A stretch of DNA of 49,035 nucleotides from the NCBI GenBank assembly GCA_035535815.1, contig DATLPI010000121.1:1-49035 (forward strand), given 5' to 3'. Positions 5,576-48,187 of the stretch are shown piece by piece. Positions within the stretch are counted from its first letter, which is position 1; every line of letters starts with the position of its first letter. Both the position numbers and the translations under genes were made by a program. The DNA comes from Actinomycetota bacterium. GTDB taxonomy: Bacteria > Actinomycetota > UBA4738 > HRBIN12. The notes below the pieces were generated by a model. That model made no database searches, was not told where the DNA came from, and saw only the letters and a program-made list of their open reading frames with translations.

Positions 5576-5600
5576 TCCGGACTCCCGTATCCTGGCCTCC

Positions 5601-5798: not shown

Positions 5799-5864
5799 GG
5801 GGTCCGCGCGCCTGGTGTGACCGCGGTCACGGCGGCATCCTCGGTGCGCCGATAGCGTCGACGC

Positions 5865-6587
5865 ATGGACCTGCTTCGGCGTCGCCCACCCACGTCCGCA
5901 CTCGTGTACTTCGGTTTGGCGGCCGTGTGCGCGGTCGCCGCCATCACCCTGATGAACGCCTACCGTCAGCACGTCGAGGCGACGCGTCCCGACGTCGGTC
6001 CGGCCGTGTCTGTGGTGGTCGCCGCGTCCGACCTGGTGCGCGGCACCGTGCTCGCTGAACCGGCGCTCACCGTGCAGCCGATCCCCTCGTCGCTGGTGCC
6101 GCCCGGTGCCCTCACGCTGATCGACGACGCAGTGGGGCGGACGCTCGTGGCCGACATCGCCGACGGCGAAGTGGTGACCCGAACCCGCGTTGGCAGCGAC
6201 GAGGCCGGACCGGTCGCCGCGCTGGTGCCGCCAGGGCTCCGGGCGTTCGTCCTGCGCTCGGGGGTGCCCGCCGGCACGTTGCGATCGGGCGACCTGGTCG
6301 ATGTGCTCGCCACCTATGGCGCCGGCGGCGGGCGGCCGTACACCGACACGGTGGCCACCGAGGTGCAGGTGCTCAAGGTGCTCGGCGCCTCCGACGGCAT
6401 CAGTGCCTCGGGAGCCGATGCGGGGGTGCAGATCGTGGTGCTCGCCGACGCCACAACGGTGGAGACGCTGGCGAGGGCATCGGCCCTCGGCGTGGTCACG
6501 GTCTCGATCGCCGGGCCCGAAGGAGTCGGGTCCCCCGGCGCGGCGATGGGGGAAGCATCGCCCGCGCCGGGGTACCTCGACGGCTAG
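5865..6587 (+). CDS. CpaB/RcpC-like protein (SAF domain), orphan
   Basis: An N-terminal TM is followed by a SAF-like segment (VVVAASDLVRGTVL...) and an RcpC-like segment (GLRAFVLRS...GDLVDVLATY). No other tad/cpa genes occur in the window. Confidence 0.6.
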   Translation: MDLLRRRPPTSALVYFGLAAVCAVAAITLMNAYRQHVEATRPDVGPAVSVVVAASDLVRGTVLAEPALTVQPIPSSLVPPGALTLIDDAVGRTLVADIADGEVVTRTRVGSDEAGPVAALVPPGLRAFVLRSGVPAGTLRSGDLVDVLATYGAGGGRPYTDTVATEVQVLKVLGASDGISASGADAGVQIVVLADATTVETLARASALGVVTVSIAGPEGVGSPGAAMGEASPAPGYLDG

Positions 6588-8074: not shown

Positions 8075-8267
8075 GGTTTTCCTCCCACGTCGGTTGTGCG
8101 TTCGGACCGAGGAAGTTCCGTCGGTCGTCTCCTAGACGCGCGAGCCCGCGTCCCGGTTGCGAAGCTAGGCGCAGTTGCCACCCCGGCGCAACCTAGGGTC
8201 GCTCGTATCCTGCGGGTTCGGGCCGCTAGCATGTGCGGGCCTCCCAACCGAAAGGCACGCGGCCCTC

Positions 8268-9107
8268 GTGAGCATCCTGCAAGCGATCATCCTGGGCATC
8301 ACCCAGGGATTGACCGAATACGCGCCGGTCTCCAGCTCCGGGCACCTCATCCTGGTGCCGTGGGCATTCGGGTGGACGATCGTGAACGATCCGGCACTGA
8401 ACAAGACGTTCGACGTGGCGCTCCACATGGGCACGCTCACGGGAGCGCTCATCTACTTCCGGCACGACGTCGTCCGTTACCTCCGTGCCTGGATCGAATC
8501 GCTCCGCGCCCGTGCCATCGAAGGTCCGGACCAGCGTCTCGCGTGGGCCTTGGTGCTGGGCACCATCCCGGGGGTGATCATCGGCGCGGCATTCGAGGGG
8601 TTCATCTCCGACACCCTGGGGCAGCCGTGGTTGATCGGCGTGATGCTCGTGGTGTTCGGCGTGGCCCTGTGGTGGGTCGACAAGGTGGCGGCCAGCGACC
8701 GCGGTCTCGATTCGATCACCCCCAAGACGGGGCTCGGGCTGGGGTTCGCCCAGGCGATGGCCCTCCAGCCCGGGGTCTCGCGGTCCGGCGTCACCATGAC
8801 CGCGGGCCGATGGATCGGGCTCGATCGCGAATCGGCGGCGAGGTTCTCGTTCCTGTTGGCGCTGCCGATCACCGCGGGCGCGGGCCTCTACGCATCGATC
8901 GATGTGGTCCAGGGCGGGTTCCAGGGCTACGCCGCGCAGTTCTTCTGGGGGTTCGTGGCGTCGGGGATCAGTGGATTCCTGGTGATCTGGGGCTTGCTGA
9001 AGTACCTGCGCACCCACAGCTTCGCGGCGTTCATGTGGTATCGGTTCGCGGTGGCGGGGATCATCTTCGTGCTGATCGCCAGCGGAGCGCGGAGCGCCAC
9101 GATCTGA
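8268..9107 (+). CDS. uppP: Undecaprenyl-diphosphate phosphatase
   Basis: The product from the GTG at 8268 begins VSILQAIILGITQGLTEYAPVSSSGHL (BacA/UppP signature). The later ...PGVSRSG motif is present. GAAAGG lies upstream. Confidence 0.9.
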   Translation: MSILQAIILGITQGLTEYAPVSSSGHLILVPWAFGWTIVNDPALNKTFDVALHMGTLTGALIYFRHDVVRYLRAWIESLRARAIEGPDQRLAWALVLGTIPGVIIGAAFEGFISDTLGQPWLIGVMLVVFGVALWWVDKVAASDRGLDSITPKTGLGLGFAQAMALQPGVSRSGVTMTAGRWIGLDRESAARFSFLLALPITAGAGLYASIDVVQGGFQGYAAQFFWGFVASGISGFLVIWGLLKYLRTHSFAAFMWYRFAVAGIIFVLIASGARSATI

Positions 9108-9130
9108 CCGACGCGGAACAGGAGGCGACC

Positions 9131-9547
9131 ATGGACCGACGCAGCGTGCAGGCTTGGCTCGACCGATACATCGACACCTGGCGGTCCGGGGATGCGGCCG
9201 AGATCGCGGCCCTGTTCAGCCGCGACGCGGAGTATCGCTACCACCCGTCCGACGACCCCATCCGGGGTCCGGAACAGATCGCGGCCTCGTGGCTCGAGAC
9301 CCCCGACGAACCCGGCACGTGGGACGCGTGGTACCGGCCGTTCGCGGTCGAGGGCGAGCACGTGGTCGCCACCGGCGTCAGCACCTACTTCCATCCGGAT
9401 GGGAGCGCCGACCGGGTCTACGACAACGTGTTCGTCATGACCTTCGACGCGCAGGGCCGGTGCAGCGAGTTCACCGAGTGGTTCGTGCAACGGCCGTCGG
9501 ATCGGCTGGATGCCTCCGTTCCCGGGCCGCTGGTTCCGGAAGGCTGA
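9131..9547 (+). CDS. SnoaL-like / NTF2-fold protein
   Basis: ATG at 9131 is preceded by GGAGG. MDRRSVQAWLDRYIDTWRSGDAAEIAALFSRDAEYRY is the typical SnoaL-like N-terminus. Confidence 0.75.
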   Translation: MDRRSVQAWLDRYIDTWRSGDAAEIAALFSRDAEYRYHPSDDPIRGPEQIAASWLETPDEPGTWDAWYRPFAVEGEHVVATGVSTYFHPDGSADRVYDNVFVMTFDAQGRCSEFTEWFVQRPSDRLDASVPGPLVPEG

Positions 9548-9553
9548 TCCGGC

Positions 9554-10603
9554 TCACCCCACCTGGACCTCGACGCGCTGGATCCCGTTGTGGGCGTACC
9601 CCCCGACGTTCCACTCGGGTTCGTCCGGCTGGGTGTTGCCCTCGGCGTCGGTGGCGCGGCAGCACACGACGTGCGAACCCTCGCGTGCGTCCCACGGGTG
9701 ATGCCAGCCACGCCATGCGAACCGCCCCATCGACGGGTCCAGGGTGGCATCGGTCCAGGACCTGCCGTCGTCGGTGCTGACCTCCACGCGTTCGATCGGC
9801 GCGTGGCCGGACCAGGCTCGCCCGTGCACCGTCGTCGGACCGGCCTGCAACGACCGGGCGCGTGAGGGGAACGCCGGGATGCCCGGCGGCACCATCAGCG
9901 CCCGAGGGGCGATCACGGTGACGGGCGTGCCGGGATCGTCCTCGGACGCTCGGAGGCGGTAGCCCATGCGCTGCTGGTAGCCGTCGAACGGTTCGGTGAC
10001 GGCGGTGATCGAGGTGAGCCACTTGACCGCGGTCATCCCGTACCACCCGGGCACCACCAACCGGAGGGGTGCTCCGTGCTGCGGAAGCAGCGGCGCGCCG
10101 TTCATCTCGTAGGCAAGGAGCACCTCTTCGCGTTGGAGTTCCGCGGGCGGAAGGCTCCGGGCGTACCACTGCTCCTCGCCGCCTTCCAGGCCGCGGTCCG
10201 ATCCGGTGAAGACCACGTCGACCGCGTCGTCGCGGAGACGGGTGCGCCTCAACAGCTCGGCCACCGGCACCCCCGTCCACTCGGCCGTGCCCACCGCTTC
10301 ACGGATCCACGGCTGGGACTCCGAGCGTCGCTCGTACAGGGTCCGGCCGTTGCCGGCGCACTCGAGCGTCACCGGCACCGTGGCCGATCGCATGGCGCGC
10401 AGATCCTCGAGCGTCCACGACCCCGGTTCCTCGACGGCACCGTCCACCGTCAGCGCGAAGTTCGGGTCGACCGGCGGGATGTCGTAGTGGATCAGCAGGT
10501 AGTGCAGCCCCGGCGGCGTGAGGTCGTAGCGCAGGGCTTCCAGCGGCATCCCGTGGTTCCGGGTGGCCTGTGCCAGCTCGACGTTCGTGAAGTCGTCGCT
10601 CAT
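9554..10603 (-). CDS. Sulfite-oxidase-family molybdopterin oxidoreductase
   Basis: ...GLHYLLIHYDIP..., ...VTLECAGNGR... (Mo-ligand Cys) and ...PLRLVVPGWYGMTAVKWL... are characteristic, followed by a C-terminal dimerisation/Ig-like domain. Confidence 0.85.
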   Translation of the reverse strand: MSDDFTNVELAQATRNHGMPLEALRYDLTPPGLHYLLIHYDIPPVDPNFALTVDGAVEEPGSWTLEDLRAMRSATVPVTLECAGNGRTLYERRSESQPWIREAVGTAEWTGVPVAELLRRTRLRDDAVDVVFTGSDRGLEGGEEQWYARSLPPAELQREEVLLAYEMNGAPLLPQHGAPLRLVVPGWYGMTAVKWLTSITAVTEPFDGYQQRMGYRLRASEDDPGTPVTVIAPRALMVPPGIPAFPSRARSLQAGPTTVHGRAWSGHAPIERVEVSTDDGRSWTDATLDPSMGRFAWRGWHHPWDAREGSHVVCCRATDAEGNTQPDEPEWNVGGYAHNGIQRVEVQVG

Positions 10604-23634: not shown

Positions 23635-24461
23635 GCCGCGACACGTTGGCCGGCGAACCCGCCATCGACGGCCTCCGGCCGGCGACCGAGACCGCCATCA
23701 CCGCCGTTCGGCGGGGGCTCGAGCTCGCTCGAAGTGGAGTGGGCGCTGACGAGATCACCTCCAAAGGTGGCCGCGATCTCGTGACGGCGACCGACAAGGC
23801 CGTCGAGGATGTGATCCGGGGCATCGTCGAGGGTGGCGCTCCCCATCCGGTCGTGGGTGAGGAGCGCGGGGGTGAGGCTCCTACGGACGGGTCACCGTAC
23901 TGGCTCCTGGACCCCATCTGCGGCACCCGCAACTTCGCGTCCGGGGTTCCCTTGTATTGCGTCAACCTGGCGCTGGTGGAGGACGACCAGATCAGCCTGG
24001 CTGCCGTCGGCGATGGATCGGTCGGTGAGATCCTGTTCGCCGAGCGTGGCCGTGGAGCGTGGGCGATCGGCCACGAAGGTGTGCGTGCGCTGAGCACCAG
24101 TGGGCAGAGCCAGACCATCATCGTGGAGTCGGGAACAGCGGCTGGCCCAAGCCGCGAACATGCCGCGCGGTTCGCACATGACGCCATCCGAGAGGATCGC
24201 TGGGACATCCGCAGCCTCAGCAGCACGCTGTCGTCGGTGTACGTCTCCGCCGGCCGGATGGCGGCGTATGTCCTGTTCTCAGGGGCGGCGCTCCACACGG
24301 GGGCAGGCACCCTGCTCGTTTCCGAGGGCGGAGGAACCGTCTCCGACATCGAGGGCGAACCCTGGACCGTCCGGTCGGACTCACTCGTGGCCAGCGCGAA
24401 CCCGGCCTTGCACGGAGAGCTCCTCGAGATGGTGCGATCGACCGCGAGGGATACCGGATGA
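23616..24461 (+). CDS. Inositol-monophosphatase-superfamily protein with divergent metal motifs
   Basis: ...VVGEERGGE...YWLLDPICGTRNF... shows the IMPase fold, but the canonical DPIDGT reads DPICGT and the C-terminal WD.AAG reads LHTGAG. The start at ATG 23616 overlaps the dinB-like end and is uncertain. Confidence 0.75.
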   Translation: MAGRTLGRDTLAGEPAIDGLRPATETAITAVRRGLELARSGVGADEITSKGGRDLVTATDKAVEDVIRGIVEGGAPHPVVGEERGGEAPTDGSPYWLLDPICGTRNFASGVPLYCVNLALVEDDQISLAAVGDGSVGEILFAERGRGAWAIGHEGVRALSTSGQSQTIIVESGTAAGPSREHAARFAHDAIREDRWDIRSLSSTLSSVYVSAGRMAAYVLFSGAALHTGAGTLLVSEGGGTVSDIEGEPWTVRSDSLVASANPALHGELLEMVRSTARDTG

Positions 24462-25354
24462 AGCACCGGATCCTCCTGGACGTCTCGAGCTTGACCTACC
24501 GGGCGTACTTCGCGATGAAGGACGCTGGCATCGTCTCGCCCGCCGGGGAGCCGATGGGGGCGGTGAGCGGTTACCTCGACATGGTGGCGCGCCTGCTCCG
24601 TTCTCGGCATCCCGACGAGATCGTGCACGCCTACGACCACGACTGGCGTCCGGTCGCCCGCACCCAGATCTATGCCGGCTACAAGTCGGAGCGTCCGCCC
24701 GAGCCGGAGGACCTCACGCGGCAGTTCGCGTTGTTGCGCGAGGTGCTCGACTTCACCGGGATGACCCAGGCGCACGCCCCGGACTGGGAGGCTGAGGACG
24801 CGATCGGCAGCCTGATCGTCGCCTCCGATCCCAACGATCGGAACGAGATCGTGAGCGGCGACCGCGATCTCCTGCAGCTCGTGCACGACCCCGACGTGAA
24901 GCTCCTCTACACGCTCCGAGGTGTCAGCGAGCTCCACGAGTTCGACGAAGCGGCCGTGCTGGAGAAGTACGGCGTCCCGGCCTCGCGCTACGCCGAGTTC
25001 GCGATCCTGCGGGGCGATCCTTCCGACGGCCTGCCCGGCGTGCTCGGTGTGGGCGAGAAGACGGCGCGCGCCCTCGTGCAGACCTATCCGGACATCGATC
25101 TGATGATCGCCGACGCCTCGAGCGCCACCCCCATACCCGGCCCGCTCAAAGGGAAACCGGCGCTGCGCGCGAAGCTGCGCGATGCCGCCGACTACCTCGC
25201 GTCGATGCGCGAGCTCGTTCCGATCAAGATCGACGCCGCGCTCGACGTCTGGACGGGAGACCGGTGGGACGAGGCGTTGAAGGGGCTGGCTGAGGAGCAG
25301 GGCTTCAAGGGCGCGGCCCAGCGACTGCTCGCCGCGCTCGACAGCTACCCGTAG
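24458..25354 (+). CDS. 5'-3' exonuclease (FEN/Pol I N-terminal-domain-like, with H3TH)
   Basis: MKHRILLDVSSLTYRAYFAM... and ...SGDRDLLQLV...ILRGDPSDGLPGVLGVGEKTA are characteristic. The ATG overlaps the upstream stop (ATGA). Confidence 0.85.
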   Translation: MKHRILLDVSSLTYRAYFAMKDAGIVSPAGEPMGAVSGYLDMVARLLRSRHPDEIVHAYDHDWRPVARTQIYAGYKSERPPEPEDLTRQFALLREVLDFTGMTQAHAPDWEAEDAIGSLIVASDPNDRNEIVSGDRDLLQLVHDPDVKLLYTLRGVSELHEFDEAAVLEKYGVPASRYAEFAILRGDPSDGLPGVLGVGEKTARALVQTYPDIDLMIADASSATPIPGPLKGKPALRAKLRDAADYLASMRELVPIKIDAALDVWTGDRWDEALKGLAEEQGFKGAAQRLLAALDSYP

Positions 25355-36276: not shown

Positions 36277-37119
36277 GTGGCCGATCCCGCCCGCCTGCGC
36301 AGCCGGACGCTCGACCGACCGTGGGGGCGCATGCACGTGTGGGAAGCCGGCCCCGACGACCCGGCTGCGCCCACGGTCCTCGCCGTCCACGGCCTGGGCG
36401 GGTCCGGCCGGTACTGGCAGGGGCTGGCCAACCGGACGGCCGGCACCCACCGGCTCATCGCCCCCGACCTCGCCGGGTTCGGCCGTTCCGACGAACCGAC
36501 GCTCGACGCCGACCGCGCACTGCACCTGGCCGATCTCGACTCGGTGATCGAGGCCACCGCTCCGCCATCGCCGGTCTGGGTGGTCGGCCACTCGCTGGGC
36601 GGCGTCCTGGCCGCGCTGTGGGCGAGTAACCGGCACGAGCGCGTGGCGGGTCTGGCACTCGCCGCTGCGCCCTTCCCTACCGGCAAGGCGATGGACTTCC
36701 GATCCCGGGCGGACCTTCAGGCTTCGCCGGTACGACGGGCGATGGGCCGGGGCGTCCGAACGATCTGGCCGGTGATCGCCGTGCCGGTGGGCCTGGCGCG
36801 CGGCTACCCGCCCGCCACCGTGATCGACTTCGGCCGGCAATCGATCCGCAGCCGGGCGTGGACCATGTGGTCGTTATGGTCCGACCCGTCGTTGGTCGAG
36901 GAGATCCAGCGGGTCGGTACGCTCGATGGGTCGCTCCCGGCGCTGCTCGCTCACGCGCGTGATGACCGGACGGTGCCGATCGCCGCCCACGGGGGCTGGA
37001 CGCGCCTGCTCCCACACGCCGAAGAACACGTGATCGAGGTCGGCGGCCACCAGTTCCTGCTCCGCACCGGCTTCGAGCCGGTGACGAGCTGGCTCAGAAC
37101 ATCTTCTGGAACTTCGTGA
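36277..37119 (+). CDS. Alpha/beta-fold hydrolase
   Basis: ...VLAVHGLGGSGRYW... and the nucleophile elbow GHSLGG are present. The 3' end overlaps the convergent surface-protein gene by 26 nt. Confidence 0.8.
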   Translation: MADPARLRSRTLDRPWGRMHVWEAGPDDPAAPTVLAVHGLGGSGRYWQGLANRTAGTHRLIAPDLAGFGRSDEPTLDADRALHLADLDSVIEATAPPSPVWVVGHSLGGVLAALWASNRHERVAGLALAAAPFPTGKAMDFRSRADLQASPVRRAMGRGVRTIWPVIAVPVGLARGYPPATVIDFGRQSIRSRAWTMWSLWSDPSLVEEIQRVGTLDGSLPALLAHARDDRTVPIAAHGGWTRLLPHAEEHVIEVGGHQFLLRTGFEPVTSWLRTSSGTS

Positions 37120-39793
37120 AGCTGCCCGCCGCCGGGTTGCCGGCGAGGTCCTTGATCGTGGCTGACGGCACGTAGACGACCGTGACGTCGCCGACCGAGG
37201 CCAACGACGCGCAGCCCGTCCCCGTGCACGAACCAGCGATGCGGACGGTCACCGTGTCCTGCGCCGCTCCTCCTTGGAGCAACAGCAACGACGACGCCCA
37301 CGAAGCCGTGCCGGTGTCGAGCGTGACGTAGTTGTTGGACTTGATGTCCATCGAACCCTGGATGAAGTTGCTGATGGTCAGCAGGTCGTTGCCCGAGCCC
37401 GCCGGGTCGGTGATCGTCAAGTTCGTCGTCGACGGGATCGAGGACGGCAACAGCGCCTCGCTCCACTCCGACGTCAACTCGTCGCACGGCTCGGCCACAC
37501 CGCCGTTCGACGGCGCACCGCTGCACACCCCGCTGGTGTTGTGACCCTTGCGGAACCCGACCGCCACGGGGCTCGCCTTGTCGGTAGGTGCCACCGCCGA
37601 GAACGCGGCACGGTTGCCGGCGGCGTCCTGGATCTGGTTCGGCGTGGCAAGTTGCACGCGGAACAATCCCACGGCGGTGTCGGGCTGGTTCTGCTCGTTG
37701 CCGATCGACAGGACGGCCTGGTTCCCGGCGATCGCGACCGACTGCAGGGAGCTGCCCGAGGGCACGTTGGTCAGCACCCAACCGGACGTGCACGGAGCGG
37801 GACACACGGCGAGGTTCTCGTTGAAGGTGACGACCACCTGATCGACGAACCCGTCCGCATCGATGTCGAACATCTGCGTCGCCGTCCTGGACGGGGCCGT
37901 GGTGTCGCCACCGAGGGCCGGGTCCTTCACGGCGTTGAAGCGCACCACCTCGTCGTCCCCGTGGTCCGGGTCGTTCGCGAGGCCGTCGACGGAGGCGGTG
38001 TTGACCACCGTCTGGGGCTGCGCCGGAGCGGTCACCGGGATCGTGATCGTGTCCACATCGTTCGCGTTCATGGCACCGAGCGCGCAGGTGACGGTGGTGG
38101 TGCCGGAGCACGAACCCGACGTCGTCGTGGCCGCGCCCGCCGGCGAGACGTTGCCCGGCAGGGTGTCGGTGACGGTCACGCTCGGGTCGCTGTCGGGGCC
38201 TTGGTTCAGCACGGTGAGCACGTAGGAGAACGCGCTGCCCTGGTCGATCTTCGCGGCGTTGGCCGGCGACATCGTGAGGTTGAGGTCGGCGCCCGCGACG
38301 GCGTTCACCGTGGTGTTGGCGCTCGAGCTGTTGTTCGCCGCGTTCGGGTCGTTGCCGACGGCCGTGACGTTCACGGTGTTGTTCAACGAACCGGCGCTGC
38401 CGGGCGTCACGGTGATCGTGGGCGCCGTGGAGCCGCCGGCCGCGATCGTGCCGAGGTCGCACGAGACCGAGTGCGTGCCCGACGAGTAGGTGCAGCTCGG
38501 GGACGCGCTCACGAACGTCGCCGAGGCCGGGAGGTTGTCGGTGAGGGCCACGCCGGCGGCCGCATCAGGCCCGGCGTTCGTCACGGTCGCGGTGTACGTG
38601 AGGGACGAACCCGCGTCGACGGGATCGGGTGTGTCGGCCAGGGACACACCCACGTCGATCGAGGCGGAGACGGCGTTGTCCGTCCACTGGGCGAAGTTCA
38701 ATTGTTTGGTCTGGGCCACGCGCGTGAAGTCACCGCCGACGTACAGGTTCGCGTTGAAGCCACGCACCGCGAAGACACCGAGGAACCCGGCCGTCACGTT
38801 GGGGAGCCAGGACTGGTCGAGCACGCCCGTGACCGGGTCGGTCCTCACGAGCTGGTTGACGGCGATGCTCGTGTACTTGAAGAAGTGCCCGCCGAAGTAC
38901 GGCACGCCGTTCAGGGTGCTGACGGCCTGCACGTTGCCGTCGGTCTTCTTCTCCCACAGCTTCGCGCCGGTCGTGGCGCTGACCGCGACGGCCTTGCCGC
39001 CACCGCCGCCGCCCGCCAGGTAGATGCGGCTGGGACCACCTTCGATGTCGAGGATGGGATAGGTGGGGTGGTAGCAGGTGGAACACGCCGAGGCGCCGCT
39101 GGAGGCATCGAGGCCGGCGAACCGCCGCTGGTCGGTGCCGTTCACCTGGACGAAGTTGCCGCCGATGAACACCCGCGTCCCCTGCACCACGATGTCACGC
39201 ACGAGGCCATCGGTGGTAGGGACCCACGTGGTCGAGATCGAACCGTCGACCGGGCTCAACGCCGCGAGCTTGGCGCGGGGCGTCGAGCCGAGGGTGTTGA
39301 ACGAGCCGCCGATGTAGACCTTGTCCGAGGTCACGGCGACCGCACGCACGACGGTGTTGGGCGATCCGGCAGGCTTCCAACTGGAGAGCGCGCCGGACGG
39401 GAGGTCGAAGGCGGCGACCATCTTGCGGGCCTGTCCACCCACCGTGGTGAAGTTCCCGACCGCGTACAGGCGGGAACCGTCGGGCGAAGCCGCAAGGCCG
39501 AAGACCGGGCCGCTGACGTTGGGGTTGAAGGAGGTGGGTTCACCCGTGGCGGCGTCGATCGCGGCGAGGTGGTTGCGCGCCATGGTGGCGCCGTTGTCGG
39601 CCTCGAGCGCGGTGAACTCCCCACCCAGGTAGATCGTGCCACCCACCCGCAGGATGACGCTGACCTGGTTGCTGGTGCCCCAGGTGTCGTCGGGCAGAAG
39701 CGACAGGGTTGCGCCGGCGGGGACCATGCCAGCCAATCCGATGACGATGGCGAGCAGCGAGAAGAGCGAAATCGTTCGAAGGTTGCGCCTCAT
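37094..39793 (-). CDS. Large secreted surface protein: propeller-type repeats, 2x DUF11 repeat, Ig-like domains
   Basis: A signal peptide (MRRNLRTISLFSLLAIVIGLAGMVPAGA) leads the protein. It is followed by about 50-aa repeats ([IV]Y[IL]GG.F...AA.D...G) and two DUF11-type units (...LTYTATVTNAGPDAAAGVALTDNLP... and ...FSYVLTVLNQGPDSDPSVTVTDTLP...). The C-terminal domains are SbsA-Ig-like. Confidence 0.8.
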   Translation of the reverse strand: MRRNLRTISLFSLLAIVIGLAGMVPAGATLSLLPDDTWGTSNQVSVILRVGGTIYLGGEFTALEADNGATMARNHLAAIDAATGEPTSFNPNVSGPVFGLAASPDGSRLYAVGNFTTVGGQARKMVAAFDLPSGALSSWKPAGSPNTVVRAVAVTSDKVYIGGSFNTLGSTPRAKLAALSPVDGSISTTWVPTTDGLVRDIVVQGTRVFIGGNFVQVNGTDQRRFAGLDASSGASACSTCYHPTYPILDIEGGPSRIYLAGGGGGGKAVAVSATTGAKLWEKKTDGNVQAVSTLNGVPYFGGHFFKYTSIAVNQLVRTDPVTGVLDQSWLPNVTAGFLGVFAVRGFNANLYVGGDFTRVAQTKQLNFAQWTDNAVSASIDVGVSLADTPDPVDAGSSLTYTATVTNAGPDAAAGVALTDNLPASATFVSASPSCTYSSGTHSVSCDLGTIAAGGSTAPTITVTPGSAGSLNNTVNVTAVGNDPNAANNSSSANTTVNAVAGADLNLTMSPANAAKIDQGSAFSYVLTVLNQGPDSDPSVTVTDTLPGNVSPAGAATTTSGSCSGTTTVTCALGAMNANDVDTITIPVTAPAQPQTVVNTASVDGLANDPDHGDDEVVRFNAVKDPALGGDTTAPSRTATQMFDIDADGFVDQVVVTFNENLAVCPAPCTSGWVLTNVPSGSSLQSVAIAGNQAVLSIGNEQNQPDTAVGLFRVQLATPNQIQDAAGNRAAFSAVAPTDKASPVAVGFRKGHNTSGVCSGAPSNGGVAEPCDELTSEWSEALLPSSIPSTTNLTITDPAGSGNDLLTISNFIQGSMDIKSNNYVTLDTGTASWASSLLLLQGGAAQDTVTVRIAGSCTGTGCASLASVGDVTVVYVPSATIKDLAGNPAAGSFTKFQKMF

Positions 39794-41223: not shown

Positions 41224-44200
41224 TCAGGAACCGACCGGGCCGCCCACCGACATAGGCGGTCTGGTGAGCGATCGGGTCAGCTCGATGCGGGTGCCGCCGG
41301 CCTCGCGGTCGACCACCACCTCATCCATCAGGGTCCGCATGATCATCAGGCCGTTGCCCCGGACGGGATCCGGATCGCGTTCGGCCCACCGTCCGTCGTC
41401 CGCCACGTGCACCACGACCCGATCGCCGTCGATCCAGCCGCGGAACTCGATGGAGCCCTCGGGCGTGGGGCGGGCATGCTCGACCGCGTTCGCGAGGGCC
41501 TCGCTGCTCGCGAGGATCAGTTCCTCCACGATGCCCTCGGGAACCTGGTGGACCTCCAGCCAGGTCCGGAGCGCGGCTCGCGCGGGAGCGAGTGCACCGG
41601 GATCGCGCTCGATCACGCGGTGGAAGCTCGGTCGGAGCGTCACGGTGAGGATGGCGACGTCGTCGACCGACGTTCCCTCGTCGATCAGTTCAGCGGCCAG
41701 GGCATCGCCGAGACCGTCGCGGTCCGCGTCCTGTTCCGCCACGTGCTCCGCCGTTTGCCGCAGACGTTCGAGACCTTCGTCCAGGGATTCGTCGCGGCGC
41801 TCCACCAAGCCGTCGGTGTAGAGGACCACCGTGTCGCCGGGTTCCATCGTGGTCAAGGACTCTTCCCGGTGGGCGGGCTCCACCACCGCGAGCGGCACCG
41901 ACCGACCGCCTTCGAGGAACCGCGCCTTCCCGAGGCGATCCACGACCATGGGGGGAAGGTGTCCGGCGGAGGCGTAGCGCAACGTCCCCGTCGAGCACTC
42001 GAGTTCGGCGCTCGCCACCGTGGTCACCTCGGCTCCGGGCAGGTCCCTGGAGAACCGGTCGAGCGACGTCAAGAGCGAGGCAGGGCCGTGCGCCTCCTGG
42101 GAGAGGGCACGCCAGGCGACCCGCAGCTGTCCCATCGTCGCCGCGGCGGCGAGCCCGCGGCCCACCACGTCCCCGACGGCCATCGCCAACGTGTCCTCGG
42201 AGAGCTCGAGCGCGTCGTACCAGTCGCCGCCGACGTCGAGGATCTGGGCGGCCGACCGGTACAGCCCGTGGACGGAGGCCTGCGCGAGGACGGGGAGATC
42301 GGCCGGCAGCATCGCCCGCTGGAGCTCCTCGGCGGCGGCCCGGGTCTGATCGGATGTCTGGGCCCGACGCAAGGCCTGCGCGACCTGCGCGGACAACGCG
42401 CGGACCGCCTCTTTCACATCGGTGGACGGGAGATGCTGGGCATCCAGGACCAGCACGACGGCGCCGATCGGCGCTCCCTGGACCACCAGCGGCAGCGCCC
42501 ACACCCCGCGTCCCTCGGCGCCGGAGATGCCGAAGCCCGCCGGATACCGGGATCGGAACGCCTCGGTGGTTTCGGCCAGGACTTCGCGACCGGTCCTGAA
42601 GGCCTCGCTCGAGGCCGCCGCGTCATCGATCGCCAGTCGGGGCATCTGCGAGGCGTCATCGTCGGCCAGCCCGCGGACCGCCACGAACTCCAGGTACCCG
42701 TCTTCATGTGCCAGGGCCACACCACCGGCGATCGCCTTCGCGATCGCGATCACTCTGGTGAGCACGATCCCGGCAGCCGCCTCCGCCGTCGAGGCTCGCG
42801 ACAGCTCGACCGACAGCCGCCGCTGCGATTCGACGCGGGCCCGCTCACGCTCCGCCGTCGCGCGGGCCTCATCCACCGCGGCGAAGAGCCTCGCCTGCTC
42901 CAGCGCACGGGCCCCGGTCGAGGCGAGATCTTCCAGGAGCGTGCGATCGTCTTCGTCGAGGCGCCGGGAGGGCGGGAAGCGGAACCCGAGCGCGCCCAGC
43001 GTGGCTCGCGGCACGTTCAGAGGTACGACGGCGGTGGGGCCGTCCGGTGATTCCGTTCCCTCCGTGAAGACGCTGATCCCACTCGTGGCCACCCGCACGA
43101 TCGCGTGGTCGTCGTCCAATGGGAGCGGCCCCAGCGCCGTGGTCGCCTTGGCTCCCTCGATGGTGGTCTCCGACGCACCCACGGCGTCACGTACCGGGAC
43201 GATCTCGAGGGCGGTGCCTTCGTCGTCGAGGAGCCCGAGGGTGACCGACACGGCGCCCGTCGCCTCCTGGGCGCACCGCACCATGGCCTCCACGACGGCG
43301 TCGACATCGTGCGCATCGAGCAGCGCGGCGGCCATCGTCTGCATCGCCTCGTTGCGTCTCGCGTCGGCTCGCAGCCGCCGCCGCGACGCCTCCAGCGCCT
43401 CCTCGCGACGCCTCGCCAGGCTGATCGCGAGCTGCACCAGACCGGCGAGCGCGAGCGCCGCCAGGAGCAGACCGAGCGGGCCCACGAGATCGGTGTTCCC
43501 CGGAACGACGACGCCCACCAGCCACCGTCGGCCCCCGACGGACACCTCCCGTGTCACGGCGTCCGGCGCGACCGATGGATCGCCGTACAAGGCCTGGCCG
43601 CCATCCAGCACCACCAGCTGGGTGTCGGCCGGGAGCTGGTGTTGCACCACGGACACGAGCTCGTCGGTGCGATAGGCCGCCGTCACGTAGCCCACCTGGG
43701 CCGCCATCCGGTCCTCACTCGTCGCGAGCGGAACGCCATGCCGGTACAGGGGCGCGATCACGAGGAACCCGGGCTCTCCGGTGGTGGACAGCTGCAGCGG
43801 AGGGGTCAGCTGAGAAACGCCAGCAGCGAGCGCCGCGGTCGTGATGGGTCCGCGCGCCGGATCATTGCCCACATCGAGCCCGAGGACCGACCGACTGAGC
43901 CGGTTGGACGGAGTCACCGCGATCACCGGGTAGTAGCGCGCCCGATGGGGTGCTCGCACGTACTCACCGAGATCCACGCGATCGACGATCTCCAGCCCGG
44001 TGGCGCGTTCGAAGGCGTGGCGGTCCCGACCGGTGACGATCGTGCCCAAACCCAGGGCGGAGATCCCGGGCTGGACCCGTACCCCGCGGGCGAACGAGGC
44101 GAAGCGGCGGACGCTGACCTCGCCGTTTCGGCCCACCACCGCGCCCGCTCCTCGGAGCCCCGCCAGGAGCTGGTCGACGGTGGACCCGAGCGAGTCGGCG

Positions 44201-44373
44201 GCAGCGTCGGCGACCTCCCGTCGCTGACCCTCGACCTGGTCGCGTCGCAGGAGCGCCGAGGAGACCGCACTGACCACCGCGAGGACGATCAGCGCACAGA
44301 CGAGGAGCGTGCTGGGCCATCGCCGAACCAACCAGGGCCTGCCCCGACCCTCGCCGACATCACGGCCGATCAT
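41224..44373 (-). CDS. Membrane sensor: CHASE - TM - GAF - GAF - PP2C/SpoIIE phosphatase - RsbW-type HATPase_c
   Basis: An N-terminal TM precedes a CHASE-like ectodomain (...RDRHAFERATG...RARYYPVIAVTPSN...LGLDVGNDPARG...GFLVIAPLY) and a second TM. Two GAF-like regions follow. The PP2C motifs are DVGGDWYD, VGDVVGRG and LYTDGLVE. The C-terminal HATPase has an N-box (EALANAVEH) plus DDGRW and GNGLMIM. Confidence 0.85.
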   Translation of the reverse strand: MIGRDVGEGRGRPWLVRRWPSTLLVCALIVLAVVSAVSSALLRRDQVEGQRREVADAAADSLGSTVDQLLAGLRGAGAVVGRNGEVSVRRFASFARGVRVQPGISALGLGTIVTGRDRHAFERATGLEIVDRVDLGEYVRAPHRARYYPVIAVTPSNRLSRSVLGLDVGNDPARGPITTAALAAGVSQLTPPLQLSTTGEPGFLVIAPLYRHGVPLATSEDRMAAQVGYVTAAYRTDELVSVVQHQLPADTQLVVLDGGQALYGDPSVAPDAVTREVSVGGRRWLVGVVVPGNTDLVGPLGLLLAALALAGLVQLAISLARRREEALEASRRRLRADARRNEAMQTMAAALLDAHDVDAVVEAMVRCAQEATGAVSVTLGLLDDEGTALEIVPVRDAVGASETTIEGAKATTALGPLPLDDDHAIVRVATSGISVFTEGTESPDGPTAVVPLNVPRATLGALGFRFPPSRRLDEDDRTLLEDLASTGARALEQARLFAAVDEARATAERERARVESQRRLSVELSRASTAEAAAGIVLTRVIAIAKAIAGGVALAHEDGYLEFVAVRGLADDDASQMPRLAIDDAAASSEAFRTGREVLAETTEAFRSRYPAGFGISGAEGRGVWALPLVVQGAPIGAVVLVLDAQHLPSTDVKEAVRALSAQVAQALRRAQTSDQTRAAAEELQRAMLPADLPVLAQASVHGLYRSAAQILDVGGDWYDALELSEDTLAMAVGDVVGRGLAAAATMGQLRVAWRALSQEAHGPASLLTSLDRFSRDLPGAEVTTVASAELECSTGTLRYASAGHLPPMVVDRLGKARFLEGGRSVPLAVVEPAHREESLTTMEPGDTVVLYTDGLVERRDESLDEGLERLRQTAEHVAEQDADRDGLGDALAAELIDEGTSVDDVAILTVTLRPSFHRVIERDPGALAPARAALRTWLEVHQVPEGIVEELILASSEALANAVEHARPTPEGSIEFRGWIDGDRVVVHVADDGRWAERDPDPVRGNGLMIMRTLMDEVVVDREAGGTRIELTRSLTRPPMSVGGPVGS

Positions 44374-44407
44374 CGGAGAAGTCTGTCACACGCCCTTCCT
44401 CCGACGC

Positions 44408-44425
44408 CCGTACGCTTGCGTACGG
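44408..44425. promoter_or_regulatory. Perfect inverted repeat CCGTACGC-TT-GCGTACGG
   Basis: Read directly from the sequence. It lies in the 122-bp divergent intergenic region between the mega-sensor and the STAS gene. Confidence 0.35.
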
Positions 44426-44495
44426 ACGGTGCTCCCGGGCACGAGTTACCGTGACGCCCTCGCGAAGCCCTGTCTTCGCCGATGGAGCATCCGAG

Positions 44496-44798
44496 ATGGG
44501 GTTGGAGATCACCGCCGCCGAGGCGCCCGATGCCGAACTCGCCCTACGAGGCGAACTGGACCTGGCCACGGCCGGGCGGCTGCTCGAGGTCGCGCGGACA
44601 CTACGGAGTGGATGCAACGTCCGGCTGGACGTCAGCGAGCTCCATTTCGCCGACAGCAGCGGGATCCGAGCCATGCTGGAGGTCGTGGATTCGATCAAGC
44701 CGGGGACTTTGGTCCTGGTCCGGCCCACGCGCTCGGTGCGTCGGGTCCTGGAGCTGTTGGGGATCGATCAGGGCGCGGGGATCGTGCTGAAGGACTGA
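44496..44798 (+). CDS. STAS-domain anti-sigma-factor antagonist (SpoIIAA/RsbV-like)
   Basis: ...LRGELDLATAGRL... and ...LDVSELHFADSSGIRAML... (a DSSG phospho-serine motif) are present. The alternative upstream GTG at 44451 is in frame. Confidence 0.8.
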   Translation: MGLEITAAEAPDAELALRGELDLATAGRLLEVARTLRSGCNVRLDVSELHFADSSGIRAMLEVVDSIKPGTLVLVRPTRSVRRVLELLGIDQGAGIVLKD

Positions 44799-44810
44799 GC
44801 GCCCGGTCGT

Positions 44811-45167
44811 TCACCCCGCTTCGGCGGGCAGGACCATCGCGACCGCGTCGCCGTTCCATCGGAGTTCCGACGCGATCGCTCCGATCAAGCGGAGACGCAG
44901 GTCGTCCTGGTCCGAGGCCTCGGGCGATCGCACACCGAAGGTCTTGATCCGCATCGATCCCGCCTGATCCAGCTCGAGCGACACCCGGATCCGGGGCCCG
45001 TCGGCGAAGGCGAGCACCTCGGTCACGGCGAGCTTGCCGTCCTCGACGCGCTCGTCGTCGATGCCCCACGCGGTGCCGCAGGCCCCGATGAAGGTTCGGA
45101 TCATGGTGTGGAGGGCAGGATCCGACGGCAGATCCAGGGTCGCCGATGCCGGCGGAGATCCGTTCAC
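44811..45167 (-). CDS. Small RsbW-like protein lacking ATP-binding motifs (putative anti-sigma/pseudokinase)
   Basis: The GTG start at 45167 overlaps the upstream STAS stop (GTGA). The N-terminal layout ATLDLPSDPALHTMIRTFIGACGTAWGIDDERVEDGKLAVTEV resembles the RsbW/SpoIIAB N-terminus. I find no N-box Asn/His and no DxGxG or GxG boxes. Length is 118 aa. Confidence 0.5.
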   Translation of the reverse strand: MNGSPPASATLDLPSDPALHTMIRTFIGACGTAWGIDDERVEDGKLAVTEVLAFADGPRIRVSLELDQAGSMRIKTFGVRSPEASDQDDLRLRLIGAIASELRWNGDAVAMVLPAEAG

Positions 45168-45499
45168 CGTTCGGGGAGATCCTCGACGCGCTCCACGACC
45201 GTGAGCACCGTGTCCAGACCGGTAAGCGCGATCACCTTCATCGGAGCCGGTTGGAGACAGGCCATCGCCACGCCGCCACCGTGCTCGCGCGCTCGTTCCG
45301 ATGACGCCACGATCACCCCGAGGCTGCTGGAGTCCATGAACGACACCCGCTGCATGTCCACGGCCACCCACGGCGTGCCTGCATCCATCGCGGTCGCGAG
45401 CGCCTCAGCGAGCTGAGGAGAGGTGTGAAGGTCGAGTTCGCCGGCCACGGAGAGTATCGTCCAGCCCTGCTGGGTATGACGTTCGAACGCGAGATCCAT
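45164..45499 (-). CDS. STAS-domain anti-sigma-factor antagonist
   Basis: The ATG at 45499 follows GGAGGAAGC. ...ILSVAGELDLHTSPQL... and ...VDMQRVSFMDSSSLGVIV... are the STAS signature with a candidate phospho-Ser. Confidence 0.85.
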   Translation of the reverse strand: MDLAFERHTQQGWTILSVAGELDLHTSPQLAEALATAMDAGTPWVAVDMQRVSFMDSSSLGVIVASSERAREHGGGVAMACLQPAPMKVIALTGLDTVLTVVERVEDLPER

Positions 45500-45514
45500 C
45501 GAATGCTTCCTCCG

Positions 45515-45541
45515 GGTTGCGGTCGGCGACTCGCCGGGATC
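45515..45541 (+). promoter_or_regulatory. SigB/SigF-type promoter candidate GGTTGC-N15-GGGATC
   Basis: It lies about 33 nt upstream of the TTG start of the anti-sigma-like/sigma operon. It has the same architecture and spacing as the csbD-upstream motif at 46793-46819. It resembles the GTTT-N(14-16)-GGG(T/A)A(T/C) consensus of B. subtilis SigB and M. tuberculosis SigF. Confidence 0.4.
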
Positions 45542-45573
45542 CATCAGACGACGCCAGGGTACAGGAGGCGAGC

Positions 45574-45966
45574 TTGCGACCAGAGCCGACCACGATCTCA
45601 CTGACCGTTCCGGCTTCGCCGTCCTCGATCGCCATCGTGCGAACCGTGGCGGCGACGGTGGCGGGACGACTCGAGGTTCCGTACGACACCGTCGACGACC
45701 TGCGGATCGCGGTCGCCGAGGCATGCAACCGCATCCTCACCTCGGCCCCCCACGCGGCCGAACTCCGACTCGACGTCGAGTGGGACGAGGCCTCGCTCGT
45801 CGCGACCGTGTCCACGGGGGTCTCGCCTGGCGACCAACCCCCCGCGCACTCGACGGCGTGGGAATGGCGCATCATCGAAGGGCTCACCGACCACGCGTCG
45901 GAAGCGATCACCGACGGTCGGCTCGCGATCGAACTGCGGATCGGCATCGGCTCCCGCGTCGTATGA
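45574..45966 (+). CDS. RsbW/UsfX-like anti-sigma factor candidate with degenerate ATP-binding boxes
   Basis: The TTG at 45574 lies 5 nt after AGGAGG. ...ISLTVPASPSSIAIVRTVAATVAGRLEVPYDTVDDLRIAVAEACNRIL resembles the RsbW N-terminus plus a partial N-box. No DxGxG or G2 box is present. The stop overlaps the sigma start (ATGA). Confidence 0.6.
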   Translation: MRPEPTTISLTVPASPSSIAIVRTVAATVAGRLEVPYDTVDDLRIAVAEACNRILTSAPHAAELRLDVEWDEASLVATVSTGVSPGDQPPAHSTAWEWRIIEGLTDHASEAITDGRLAIELRIGIGSRVV

Positions 45967-46760
45967 GCGAGCAAGCGTCGGCAGGTGAAGCTCGGGAGGC
46001 GGACGACCGCGAAGTCGCCGCGTGGTTCGCGCAGCTCCCCGATCCGAAGGCCCGCGACGCCCTCGCCGAGCAGTTCCGCCCGCTGGCCGACTACCTCGCC
46101 CGGCGGTTCGCCGGCCGAGGGGAGAACGTCGAGGACCTCCAGCAGGTCGCGGCGATCGGATTGCTCAACGCGATCGACCGCTTCGACCCTGGCCGTGAGG
46201 TGCGGTTCTCGACGTACGCGTCGGCGACGATCGTCGGTGAGCTCAAGCGCAATTTCCGCGACAAAGGATGGACCATCCGTGTGCCCCGGCGGCTCCAGGA
46301 GCTCGCGACGCGTTTGAACCAGACCCTCCCGGAGATGACCGGATCCCTCGGCAGGACGCCGACCATCCCGGAGTTGGCCGAGCGGCTCGACGTGGAACCC
46401 GAGGACATCGTCGAGGCGATGGACGCCGCGCAGGCGTACTCGGCCACATCGCTGGACGCTCCGTTCGGCGAGGAAGGACTCACGCCTTCCGACACGCTCG
46501 GGGACGAGGATCCATCCATCGCGATGACCGACGAGTGGGCCTCGCTGGCGCCCGTCGTCGAGGCGCTGCCGCCCCGCTCACGGCGGGTCCTCTACCTCCG
46601 GTTCTTCCGGGGACTGACGCAATCGGAGATCGCCCAGGACATCGGCGTCTCCCAGATGCACGTGTCGCGCATCCTCGCTCAGACGATCCAGGAGCTCCGG
46701 GAAGGCGTGGGAGCCGACGACACCGGCCAGCCGAACGCGACCGACGACGCCGAGCCCTAG
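45963..46760 (+). CDS. Group 3 RNA polymerase sigma factor, SigB/SigF/SigG family
   Basis: ...VAAIGLLNAIDRFDPGREVRFSTYASATIVGELKRNFRDKGWTIRVPRRLQE... covers regions 2.x and 3. ...LYLRFFRGLTQSEIAQDIGVSQMHVSRIL... is the region 4.2 HTH. Confidence 0.9.
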   Translation: MSEQASAGEAREADDREVAAWFAQLPDPKARDALAEQFRPLADYLARRFAGRGENVEDLQQVAAIGLLNAIDRFDPGREVRFSTYASATIVGELKRNFRDKGWTIRVPRRLQELATRLNQTLPEMTGSLGRTPTIPELAERLDVEPEDIVEAMDAAQAYSATSLDAPFGEEGLTPSDTLGDEDPSIAMTDEWASLAPVVEALPPRSRRVLYLRFFRGLTQSEIAQDIGVSQMHVSRILAQTIQELREGVGADDTGQPNATDDAEP

Positions 46761-46792: not shown

Positions 46793-46819
46793 GGTTTCGC
46801 GCCTCCCACAGACGGGAAC
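46793..46819 (+). promoter_or_regulatory. SigB/SigF-type promoter candidate GGTTTC-N15-GGGAAC
   Basis: It lies about 49 nt upstream of the csbD ATG. See the motif at 45515-45541 for the shared architecture. Confidence 0.45.
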
Positions 46820-47161: not shown

Positions 47162-48187
47162 GTGCCGCGGTTGAGGAGGGTCTCGGATTCCCAGCCGGGC
47201 ATCCGCAGGGTCGGACGCGGTAAGGGGTTCTCCTACCTCGATCACCGGGACATGCCGATCCGCGACGCCGACACCTTGGCTCGGATCGATGCGCTCGCCA
47301 TCCCACCGGCCTGGACCGACGTCTGGATCTGCCCGGCGGAGAATGGCCACATCCAGGCCACGGGAACCGATGCCGCTGGACGTCATCAGTACCTCTATCA
47401 CGCAACCTGGCGCGAACGACGCGACGTCGAAAAGTTCCGACGCGTCGAAGGGTTCGCCCATCGATTGCCCGCCGTTCGCCGGCAGGTCACCCGCGATCTG
47501 CGCGAAGGGGACCTCGCCAGGGCCACGGTGTTGGCGTGCTCGATCCGCCTACTGGACCAAGCATTCTTCAGGATCGGCTCGGAGGACTATGCAGCCCAGA
47601 ACGGCTCGTTCGGTTTGGCTACCATCCGCAAGAGCCATGTGTCGCTCGAAGGGGACGAAGCCACGTTCGACTACACGGCCAAGAGCGGCAAGCGACGGAT
47701 CCAGGTGGTGCGCGACCCCGACCTGATGCCCATCCTGCGCACGCTGAAGGAACGACGAACGGGCCGGGAACTCCTTGCCTACCAGCTCGACGGGCGGTGG
47801 CGCGACCTACGGTCCGGGGAGATCAACGAGTACCTCAAGGCCCTCGCGGGTGAGGAGTACTCCGCCAAGGATTTCCGGACCTGGCACGCCACCGTGCTCG
47901 CGGCGGCCGAGGTCGCAGCGTCTCCGCCGGCCACCTCCGTCGCAGCAAGCAGGAAGGTGGTCACGGAGACGGTGAAGGCCGTCGCCGGCTACCTGGGGAA
48001 CACCCCCGCGGTGGCGCGCGCCTCCTACATCGATCCGCGCGTGTTCGATCGGTACCGCGACGGCATCACGATCGGGTCGGTGGCCGGCTCGTTCGACCTG
48101 TCCAGCGGGGAACGCGTTCGGGCACGGGTCGAACGTGCCGTGCTCGAACTCCTCGACCACGATGCCCCGGCTGCCGCCGCGGCGTGA
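47162..48187 (+). CDS. Type IB DNA topoisomerase (poxvirus-like bacterial TopIB)
   Basis: ...GIRRVGRGKGFSY......IRD...L.RI..LAIPPAW.DVWICP...GHIQATG.DAAGR.QY.YH..W... and ...FRTWHATV... are present. The C-terminal ...GNTPAVARASYIDPRV... carries the catalytic Tyr context. Confidence 0.85.
   Translation: MPRLRRVSDSQPGIRRVGRGKGFSYLDHRDMPIRDADTLARIDALAIPPAWTDVWICPAENGHIQATGTDAAGRHQYLYHATWRERRDVEKFRRVEGFAHRLPAVRRQVTRDLREGDLARATVLACSIRLLDQAFFRIGSEDYAAQNGSFGLATIRKSHVSLEGDEATFDYTAKSGKRRIQVVRDPDLMPILRTLKERRTGRELLAYQLDGRWRDLRSGEINEYLKALAGEEYSAKDFRTWHATVLAAAEVAASPPATSVAASRKVVTETVKAVAGYLGNTPAVARASYIDPRVFDRYRDGITIGSVAGSFDLSSGERVRARVERAVLELLDHDAPAAAAA

Follow-up and report, generated by a model that had tools for sequence, protein, structure and literature searches.

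How is a stress sigma factor governed when the proteins that would hold it, release it and sense the signal for its release are encoded side by side, and which of several RsbW-like domains performs which task? This question is raised by six adjacent genes at positions 41224–46760 of contig DATLPI010000121.1 from an uncultured member of the Actinomycetota (lineage UBA4738; HRBIN12), the whole 49,035-nucleotide stretch of which is referred to here as the window. The genes encode a membrane sensor of 1049 residues, two STAS-domain proteins (STAS-A and STAS-B), two small RsbW-like proteins of 118 and 130 residues and a sigma factor of the SigB/F family. The initial annotation regarded them as an atypically partitioned partner-switching module, in which a single bifunctional sensor sets two parallel antagonist/anti-sigma pairs that converge on one sigma factor. 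The analyses described here instead identify the locus as a genuine, conserved stress sigma-factor partner switch of the mycobacterial SigF type, in an uncultured Actinomycetota lineage. On balance, we favor as the best explanation that the switch is set by one sensor carrying a kinase/phosphatase unit like that of Mycobacterium tuberculosis Rv1364c, with the 118-residue protein and STAS-A as accessories.

The six open reading frames, their strands and the GTGA and ATGA overlaps that join two pairs of them were all found as initially annotated. Related loci, designated by L numbers, were gathered with an alignment of the 130-residue protein family (85 fetched, of which 80 are genome loci), and their gene context was rechecked independently via three members of the family of the 118-residue protein. 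The closest relatives of the window, which has a G+C content of ~70% that is uniform along its length, are uncultured Actinomycetota or Actinomycetes genomes assembled from environmental samples. The six genes occur in identical order in L001/L006, L007 and L008, and synteny with the housekeeping neighbors around the locus is kept in the relatives. Comparison of the window with three relatives gave ratios of nonsynonymous to synonymous substitution rates (dN/dS) of 0.09–0.41 overall, indicating purifying selection on all genes. The values span 0.10–0.20 across the four core genes, namely those for the sensor (0.10–0.12), STAS-B (0.10–0.20), the 130-residue protein (0.10–0.19) and the sigma factor. 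The genes for STAS-A (0.22–0.31) and the 118-residue protein (0.34–0.41) together span 0.22–0.41 and so evolve faster than the core. As the same gene order recurs in related genomes and every gene is under purifying selection, the six-gene arrangement is not a product of chance.

The assignment of the sigma factor to the SigB/SigF/SigG family is secure, its NCBIfam score lying above the cut-off (Table 1) and Pfam regions r2, r3 and r4 all exceeding theirs. Its ATG overlaps the end of the 130-residue gene as ATGA; the TTG start of the latter lies 5 nt downstream of an AGGAGG and is replaced by GTG in three relatives. The best solved relatives of the 130-residue protein are M. tuberculosis RsbW/UsfX in complex with SigF (8jzt) and with RsfB (8ih8), the match to 8jzt_B covering query residues 7–116 with E 1.5e-8. 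The ATP-binding boxes were aligned with those of Bacillus subtilis RsbW, a stand-alone actinobacterial kinase, Rv1364c and M. tuberculosis RsbW. In this alignment the 130-residue protein has Arg in place of the Mg-binding catalytic Asn of the N box, as does M. tuberculosis RsbW (AEACNRILTS versus DEVCTRLIRS), and both the G1 (DxGxG) and G2 (GxGL) boxes are missing from this protein and across its family. A gene of this family stands directly upstream of a SigB/F-type sigma gene in 79 of the 80 genome loci, the remaining locus ending at a contig edge. The 130-residue protein is a homolog of M. tuberculosis RsbW/UsfX and is predicted to be a kinase-dead anti-sigma factor.

This assignment also bears on the partition of functions that had been considered atypical. 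In Mycobacterium smegmatis, RsbW1 binds SigF and is kinase-negative in vitro, and RsbW2 phosphorylates the antagonist RsfB without binding SigF (PMC7693655). Because mycobacteria already separate a kinase-dead anti-sigma factor from the kinase, in the RsbW1/2/3 set of M. smegmatis, the partition seen here corresponds to the normal actinobacterial SigF design.

The antagonist of the anti-sigma factor can be recognized from the same comparisons. STAS-B scores well above the TIGR00377 cut-off (Table 1) and aligns with SpoIIAA (1th8_B, E 1.4e-10), such that the first Ser of its DSS motif is matched to the SpoIIAA phospho-Ser. Of the 85 related loci fetched, 31 encode a STAS protein, and each of these 31 has a STAS-B ortholog (77–127 bits) that is divergent from the anti-sigma and sigma genes. 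In a more distant lineage, with anti-sigma factors 45–48% identical to that of the window, the locus comprises four genes only, for the CHASE sensor, one STAS protein, the anti-sigma factor and the sigma factor, and the lone STAS protein is the STAS-B ortholog (127 bits). As STAS-B pairs with the 130-residue protein and sigma factor even where the 118-residue gene and STAS-A are missing, it is the likely antagonist of the 130-residue anti-sigma factor. Judged by this pattern of conservation, the core of the system comprises STAS-B, the 130-residue anti-sigma factor, the sigma factor and the phosphatase/kinase, with the 118-residue protein and STAS-A as accessories.

The domain composition of the sensor, as initially annotated, agrees with both Pfam and hydropathy analyses. 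All five matches, judged against curated cut-offs, exceed them. Hydrophobic segments at about residues 20–44 and 296–321, with hydropathy peaks at 18–44 and 294–321, bracket the CHASE domain as transmembrane (TM) helices TM1 and TM2, and the basic residues that precede TM1 and follow TM2 place the CHASE domain outside the cell. The metal-binding motifs of the PP2C domain are invariant or near-invariant in sensor homologs at 40–94% identity, and the N, G1 and G2 boxes of the kinase domain are kept over the same range; the stretches EALANAVEH, DDGRW and GNGLMIM pointed out in the initial annotation are present and conserved in homologs down to 40% identity. The last 369 residues (PP2C plus HATPase) match the RsbU plus RsbW unit of Rv1364c in a single alignment (3ke6_A, E 2e-41). 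The Rv1364c kinase domain is the closest solved structure to that of the sensor, and the box alignment reveals a short ATP lid of the Rv1364c kind. The sensor has neither a PAS input nor a fused STAS domain, the polypeptide stopping after the HATPase domain. Taken together, the sensor contains an Rv1364c-like PP2C-kinase unit that retains all kinase and phosphatase motifs, and it is predicted from these motifs to act on a STAS serine. Complete CHASE-GAF-GAF-SpoIIE-HATPase_c_2 proteins were seen only in a small set of environmental sequences, for which one source already names the domains; SpoIIE-HATPase_c_2 fusions carrying other sensor domains are present in cultured actinomycetes.

Table 1 Features of the six-gene locus and of the gene downstream, in window coordinates (aa, amino acids)
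Feature	Position	Strand	Evidence
Sensor, TM1-CHASE-TM2-GAF-GAF-PP2C(SpoIIE)-HATPase_c_2, 1049 aa	41224..44373	-	Pfam domains, hydropathy
RsbW-type kinase domain (aa 922-1033)	41275..41610	-	PF13581 81.5 bits; N box SEALANAVEH, G1 DDGRW, G2 RGNGL
PP2C/SpoIIE phosphatase domain (aa 726-913)	41635..42198	-	PF07228 139.9 bits; GGDWYD, GDVVGRG, YTDGL, DDVAIL
Two cytoplasmic GAF domains (aa 356-493, 529-668)	42370..43308	-	GAF_3 42.7 bits, GAF_2 52.1 bits
CHASE domain (aa 85-260), predicted extracytoplasmic between two TM helices	43594..44121	-	PF03924 96.3 bits (cut-off 25)
STAS-A, FADSSG, probable accessory antagonist homolog	44451..44798	+	Pfam STAS (PF01740) 44.3 bits (cut-off 22.6), STAS_2 46.8 bits
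Mini-RsbW, 118 aa, RsbW/SpoIIAB fold without ATP lid	44811..45167	-	Profile search, AF2 (AlphaFold2), Foldseek, hhalign
STAS-B, 111 aa, FMDSSS, likely core anti-sigma antagonist	45164..45499	-	TIGR00377 82.5 bits (cut-off 53.45)
130-aa protein, predicted UsfX/RsbW1-type kinase-dead anti-sigma factor	45574..45966	+	Homology to M. tuberculosis RsbW; missing boxes
Sigma factor, SigB/SigF/SigG family, 265 aa	45963..46760	+	TIGR02980 265.5 bits (cut-off 234.35); Pfam regions 2, 3, 4
Candidate SigB/F-type promoter GGTTT-N16-GGGAAC	46793..46819	+	49 nt upstream of csbD
CsbD-like general stress protein, 68 aa	46868..47074	+	PF05532 66.1 bits

Scanned over its full length for additional STAS, HATPase_c_2, PP2C or sigma paralogs, the window revealed none beyond the six-gene locus, and the statement that the sole intact kinase domain is the one on the sensor therefore holds for the locus and for all 49 kb. 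The related loci present the complementary picture. In relatives that have no fused kinase, the same divergent operon includes a gene for a separate RsbW kinase whose boxes are intact, in some loci straight after STAS-B, and this stand-alone kinase is absent exactly in those related loci whose CHASE sensor carries the fused kinase domain. Twelve of the 80 genome loci have a gene for a relative of the 118-residue protein after STAS-B, as do the loci reached via members of its own family; outside the window clade, most of those 12 continue with genes for a second STAS protein and for a stand-alone RsbW kinase in which the N, G1 and G2 boxes are all intact.

Placing the 118-residue protein, described in the initial annotation simply as RsbW-like, required a profile search, a structure model and a profile–profile comparison, after which the description held. 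The protein alone has no significant Pfam match (E 0.022), and a word-based homolog search returned close relatives only. An exhaustive profile search gave a family of 115–130-residue proteins, 22 of whose 32 aligned members match HATPase_c_2 (PF13581). The AlphaFold2 model computed on this deep family alignment has a predicted local distance difference test (pLDDT) score of 94.9; an earlier model computed on close homologs alone (pLDDT 61) was dropped in its favor. In a Foldseek search, the top matches to the model were B. subtilis RsbW, M. tuberculosis UsfX and SpoIIAB (6m36, 8ih8, 8jzt and 1th8, with E values of 4e-7 to 3e-5 and TM-scores of 0.65–0.86), followed by the Rv1364c kinase domain. 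The protein retains the invariant helix 1 Arg and the N-box helix Glu, and it lacks the N-box Asn, G1, G2 and the ATP lid. Scores against the NCBIfam RsbW/SpoIIAB models are far under the cut-offs for both the 118- and 130-residue proteins. At the sequence level, the loss of the N-box Asn, G1 and G2 from both of them agrees with their earlier description as ATP-blind. By hhalign, the 118-residue family matches the 130-residue family with a probability of 99%, a score of 103 and E 5e-18, versus scores of 62 against the stand-alone kinases and 65 against the sensor HATPase. Because it combines the RsbW fold with lost boxes and a profile closer to the 130-residue family, the protein is assigned on homology as a shrunken paralog of the kinase-dead anti-sigma factor. 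It is an accessory to the core and is referred to below as mini-RsbW. Its GTG start overlaps the STAS-B stop as GTGA, an instance of translational coupling, and the same 4-nt overlap is found in L001. By analogy with known systems, mini-RsbW most likely binds either STAS-B, as a buffer or sink, or the anti-sigma factor, in the manner of RsbW3 of M. smegmatis.

A distant member of the mini-RsbW family (116 residues, no Pfam match, 23% identity) was found between STAS and sigma genes in L088/L089 (4693–6189, + strand). This three-gene STAS/mini-RsbW/sigma operon adjoins gyrB/gyrA, and its sequence looks lower in G+C. Its gene order suggests that lid-less RsbW proteins can act as the anti-sigma factor itself.

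The gene for STAS-A is divergent from that of the sensor and convergent with that of mini-RsbW. Its likelier start is the ATG at 44496, giving a protein of 100 residues that matches the gene call in L001. Both STAS proteins named in the initial annotation carry the expected motifs and matches (Table 1), and the DSSG of STAS-A aligns with the SpoIIAA phosphorylation motif. STAS-A exceeds the cut-off for PF01740 but reaches only 37.1 bits for TIGR00377, against the cut-off of 53.45 that STAS-B passes. Besides its occurrence in the window clade, it has a homolog of 42% identity in the same convergent position in L086 (1527–1853, − strand). This counterpart has MDGSG where the window has ADSSG and, since a Gly occupies the usual phospho-Ser position, the STAS-A-type protein in some lineages may not be phosphorylatable.

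Other arrangements of the module were observed among the related loci. L086 (795–5270) and L087 (1496–4723) contain genes for the sigma factor, anti-sigma factor, a STAS/mini-RsbW pair, a convergent STAS protein, a STAS/canonical kinase pair and a PAS-GAF-GAF-SpoIIE phosphatase. With three STAS and three RsbW-like proteins, this richer module mirrors the M. smegmatis RsbW1/2/3 triad in one locus. In eleven CHASE-less loci (L010, L012, L014, L016, L017, L019, L025, L039, L053, L060 and L085), a PP2C protein of 657–758 residues is encoded about 2–5 kb downstream of the sigma gene and has no match to the sensor HATPase domain. The metagenome contig L005 contains the same module (3578–9611) with the sensor, sigma and other genes fragmented, a pattern more suggestive of an assembly rich in frameshifts than of true pseudogenes.

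We infer every binding step and every enzymatic step of the mechanism that follows from what was observed directly, namely gene structure, domains, the presence or absence of motifs, fold, homology, synteny and selection. The 130-residue UsfX/RsbW1-like protein would sequester the SigB/F-family sigma factor without using ATP, and unphosphorylated STAS-B would bind this anti-sigma factor and free the sigma factor, by homology to the UsfX–RsfB and UsfX–SigF complexes. The phosphorylation state of the serine of STAS-B (and of STAS-A) would be set by the opposing PP2C and RsbW-type kinase domains of the sensor, the balance of which would respond to an extracytoplasmic ligand via CHASE and to cytoplasmic ligands via the two GAF domains. 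Mini-RsbW, co-translated with STAS-B, would bind either STAS-B or the anti-sigma factor and in this way modulate the switch, and STAS-A would be a second, accessory substrate or antagonist. The freed sigma factor would then use a GTTT-N17-GGGAAC promoter to transcribe, at a minimum, the neighboring csbD gene.

The proposed output is consistent with the region downstream of the sigma gene. The pattern GGTTT-N14-18-GGGWA has two matches in the window versus 0.11 expected. The match upstream of csbD resembles the M. smegmatis SigF promoter, quoted as GTTT-N17-GGGTAA (PMC7693655), and both its GTTT and its GGGAAC recur before the orthologous reading frame in L006, L008, L009 and L030, separated by a spacer that varies. 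A 68-residue gene follows the sigma gene in L001 and L002, and the gene is annotated as CsbD in L005 and L087; in the window comparison its dN/dS is 0.09–0.16. These features make csbD a likely direct target and regulon member of the sigma factor. The second match to the pattern (GGTTT-N15-GGGTA, 25134–25158, − strand) lies antisense within a 5'-3' exonuclease gene (24458–25354, + strand) and is probably due to chance. A candidate autoregulatory promoter before the anti-sigma/sigma operon, GGTTG-N16-GGGATC at 45515–45541, is not claimed; three close relatives read GGGTG at −35.

Next after csbD lies a gene for a bacterial type IB topoisomerase (Top1B_N_bact plus Topoisom_I; 47162–48187, + strand). 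As the order sigma-csbD-Top1B is retained in L001 and in the distant L002/L003, the Top1B gene may belong to the same stress unit as the sigma factor and csbD. On the other side of the locus, at 37094–39793 (− strand), an 899-residue protein with beta-propeller-like repeats and two DUF11 domains is encoded, with a counterpart in L001; this protein probably resides at the cell surface or is secreted.

Four observations weigh against the mechanism proposed above. The ATP lid of the sensor kinase domain is short, as in its closest solved homolog, Rv1364c, the kinase activity of which has been disputed, reportedly in a 2008 paper titled 'Loss of kinase activity in ... Rv1364c'. The STAS/mini-RsbW/sigma operon of L088/L089 fits an anti-sigma role for mini-RsbW better than a role as a sink. 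A search with a strict pattern found no conserved SigF-type promoter upstream of the anti-sigma/sigma operon. Finally, the view extends over 49 kb, and HATPase_c_2 kinases, PP2C phosphatases or SigB/F paralogs encoded elsewhere could be the real partners.

Tentatively, we regard it as possible that the lid-less 115–130-residue mini-RsbWs constitute an undescribed pseudokinase class that adds a further, STAS-gated layer to SigF-type switches, and that in this lineage an extracellular ligand directly drives the entire switch through the fusion of CHASE to a bifunctional kinase/phosphatase, with no two-component relay. The same tentative reading would have this layer, co-translated with the core STAS antagonist, act as a sink, as an RsbW3-like antagonist or as a second anti-sigma factor.

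A more specific proposal, which we consider rather doubtful, is that mini-RsbW acts like RsbW3, forming a heterodimer with the 130-residue anti-sigma factor that inactivates it and so raises sigma activity, with STAS-B limiting the free mini-RsbW. RsbW-type proteins are dimeric, and M. smegmatis RsbW3, which has no kinase activity and does not bind SigF, antagonizes RsbW1 by binding it (PMC7693655). RsbW3 is nearer to RsbW1 than to RsbW2 (PMC7693655), just as hhalign places the mini-RsbW family nearer to that of the anti-sigma factor (E 5e-18) than to the kinases (E 1e-10). However, RsbW3 (MSMEG_1787), compared here by its published description, has 194 residues and an N-terminal extension, versus 118 residues for mini-RsbW, and no SigF-type promoter was seen upstream of the STAS-B/mini-RsbW operon, whereas rsbW3 is SigF-dependent.

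We judge unlikely the two parallel pairs of the initial annotation, in which STAS-B with mini-RsbW and the other STAS protein with the 130-residue protein would both sequester one sigma factor under a single bifunctional sensor. In favor of this reading, both small proteins adopt the RsbW fold, with the invariant Arg and Glu preserved in the N-terminal half that binds partners, the coupling of mini-RsbW to a STAS gene resembles that of classical antagonist/anti-sigma pairs, and the distant family member fills the anti-sigma slot of a STAS/X/sigma operon. Against this pairing stand the STAS-B orthologs, which accompany the 130-residue/sigma operon even where any 118-residue homolog is lacking. 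Mini-RsbW and STAS-A are moreover dispensable in the four-gene relatives and faster-evolving, and the kinase-less M. smegmatis paralog RsbW3 does not bind SigF (PMC7693655). Least probable is that the sensor HATPase is an intramolecular regulator of PP2C or an extra sigma or STAS binder, with the kinase encoded elsewhere: the short lid, the questioned kinase activity of Rv1364c, its reported binding to SigF (PMC10950880) and the stand-alone kinases of related genomes are all compatible with it, but the N, G1 and G2 boxes are retained across sensor homologs, the relatives lack a stand-alone kinase exactly where the fused domain is present and the 49-kb window contains no other HATPase_c_2 gene.

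The favored explanation, a SigF-type switch set by one sensor, can be compared with several characterized systems. The first is the mycobacterial SigF system (UsfX/RsbW, RsfA, RsfB). Here too, the anti-sigma gene immediately precedes a SigB/F-family sigma gene and is coupled to it, the anti-sigma factor is devoid of the kinase boxes and STAS phosphorylation is assigned to a different RsbW-type domain, and a further kinase-less RsbW paralog, closer to the anti-sigma factor than to the kinase, is present. In contrast to that system, all the parts are in one locus, the kinase shares a membrane-sensor polypeptide with the phosphatase instead of forming a stand-alone RsbW2, and the extra paralog is a lid-less, STAS-co-translated protein of 118 residues, versus the 194 residues of RsbW3. 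The Bacillus RsbV-RsbW-SigB and SpoIIAA-SpoIIAB-SigF systems share the folds, the partner-switching logic and csbD as a type of target gene. In those systems, however, one protein is both anti-sigma factor and kinase, whereas the ATP-binding boxes are missing from both small RsbW-like proteins of this locus.

With respect to the sensor, the nearest solved relative is Rv1364c (3ke6), composed of PAS, PP2C, kinase and STAS domains and reported to both phosphorylate and dephosphorylate its own STAS serine (as cited in PMC10950880 and PMC9138534). The two proteins have in common the PP2C-kinase tandem as one unit, the box pattern and the short lid. They differ in input, which is TM-CHASE-TM-GAF-GAF here versus a cytoplasmic PAS domain in Rv1364c, and in the STAS domain, which is fused in Rv1364c and encoded here, as STAS-A, by a separate divergent gene. 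Extracytoplasmic CHASE-type domains paired with a PP2C phosphatase that acts on the antagonist are also known. The M. smegmatis CHASE3 histidine kinase RsfS controls the REC-PP2C protein RsfR, which dephosphorylates RsfB, and Bacillus cereus RsbK (CHASE3 plus GAF) with RsbY is similar to this pair (PMC10950880). Those systems use His-Asp phosphotransfer between two proteins. The sensor described here involves neither a histidine kinase nor a receiver, its CHASE domain (of the PF03924 family rather than CHASE3) and its GAF domains being joined directly to the PP2C-kinase unit. Vibrio fischeri SypE combines an RsbW-like kinase, REC and PP2C, and acts on the STAS protein SypA. It thereby resembles the sensor in directing opposing kinase and phosphatase domains of one polypeptide at a STAS protein but is cytoplasmic, receiver-controlled and of another domain order, with no sigma output.

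What is new in this locus is the direct fusion of CHASE-GAF-GAF to an Rv1364c-like PP2C-kinase unit, together with the lid-less mini-RsbW family; the separation of a kinase-dead anti-sigma factor from the kinase is already known from mycobacteria. No current view of sigma-factor regulation is overturned. Rather, the locus extends the mycobacterial split between anti-sigma factor and kinase to deep, uncultured lineages of Actinomycetota. As a compact, single-locus switch with sensor, kinase and phosphatase in one protein, it could serve as a model for CHASE control of the balance between PP2C and kinase, and the mini-RsbW family offers a cheap target for learning how kinase-less RsbW paralogs tune partner switches.

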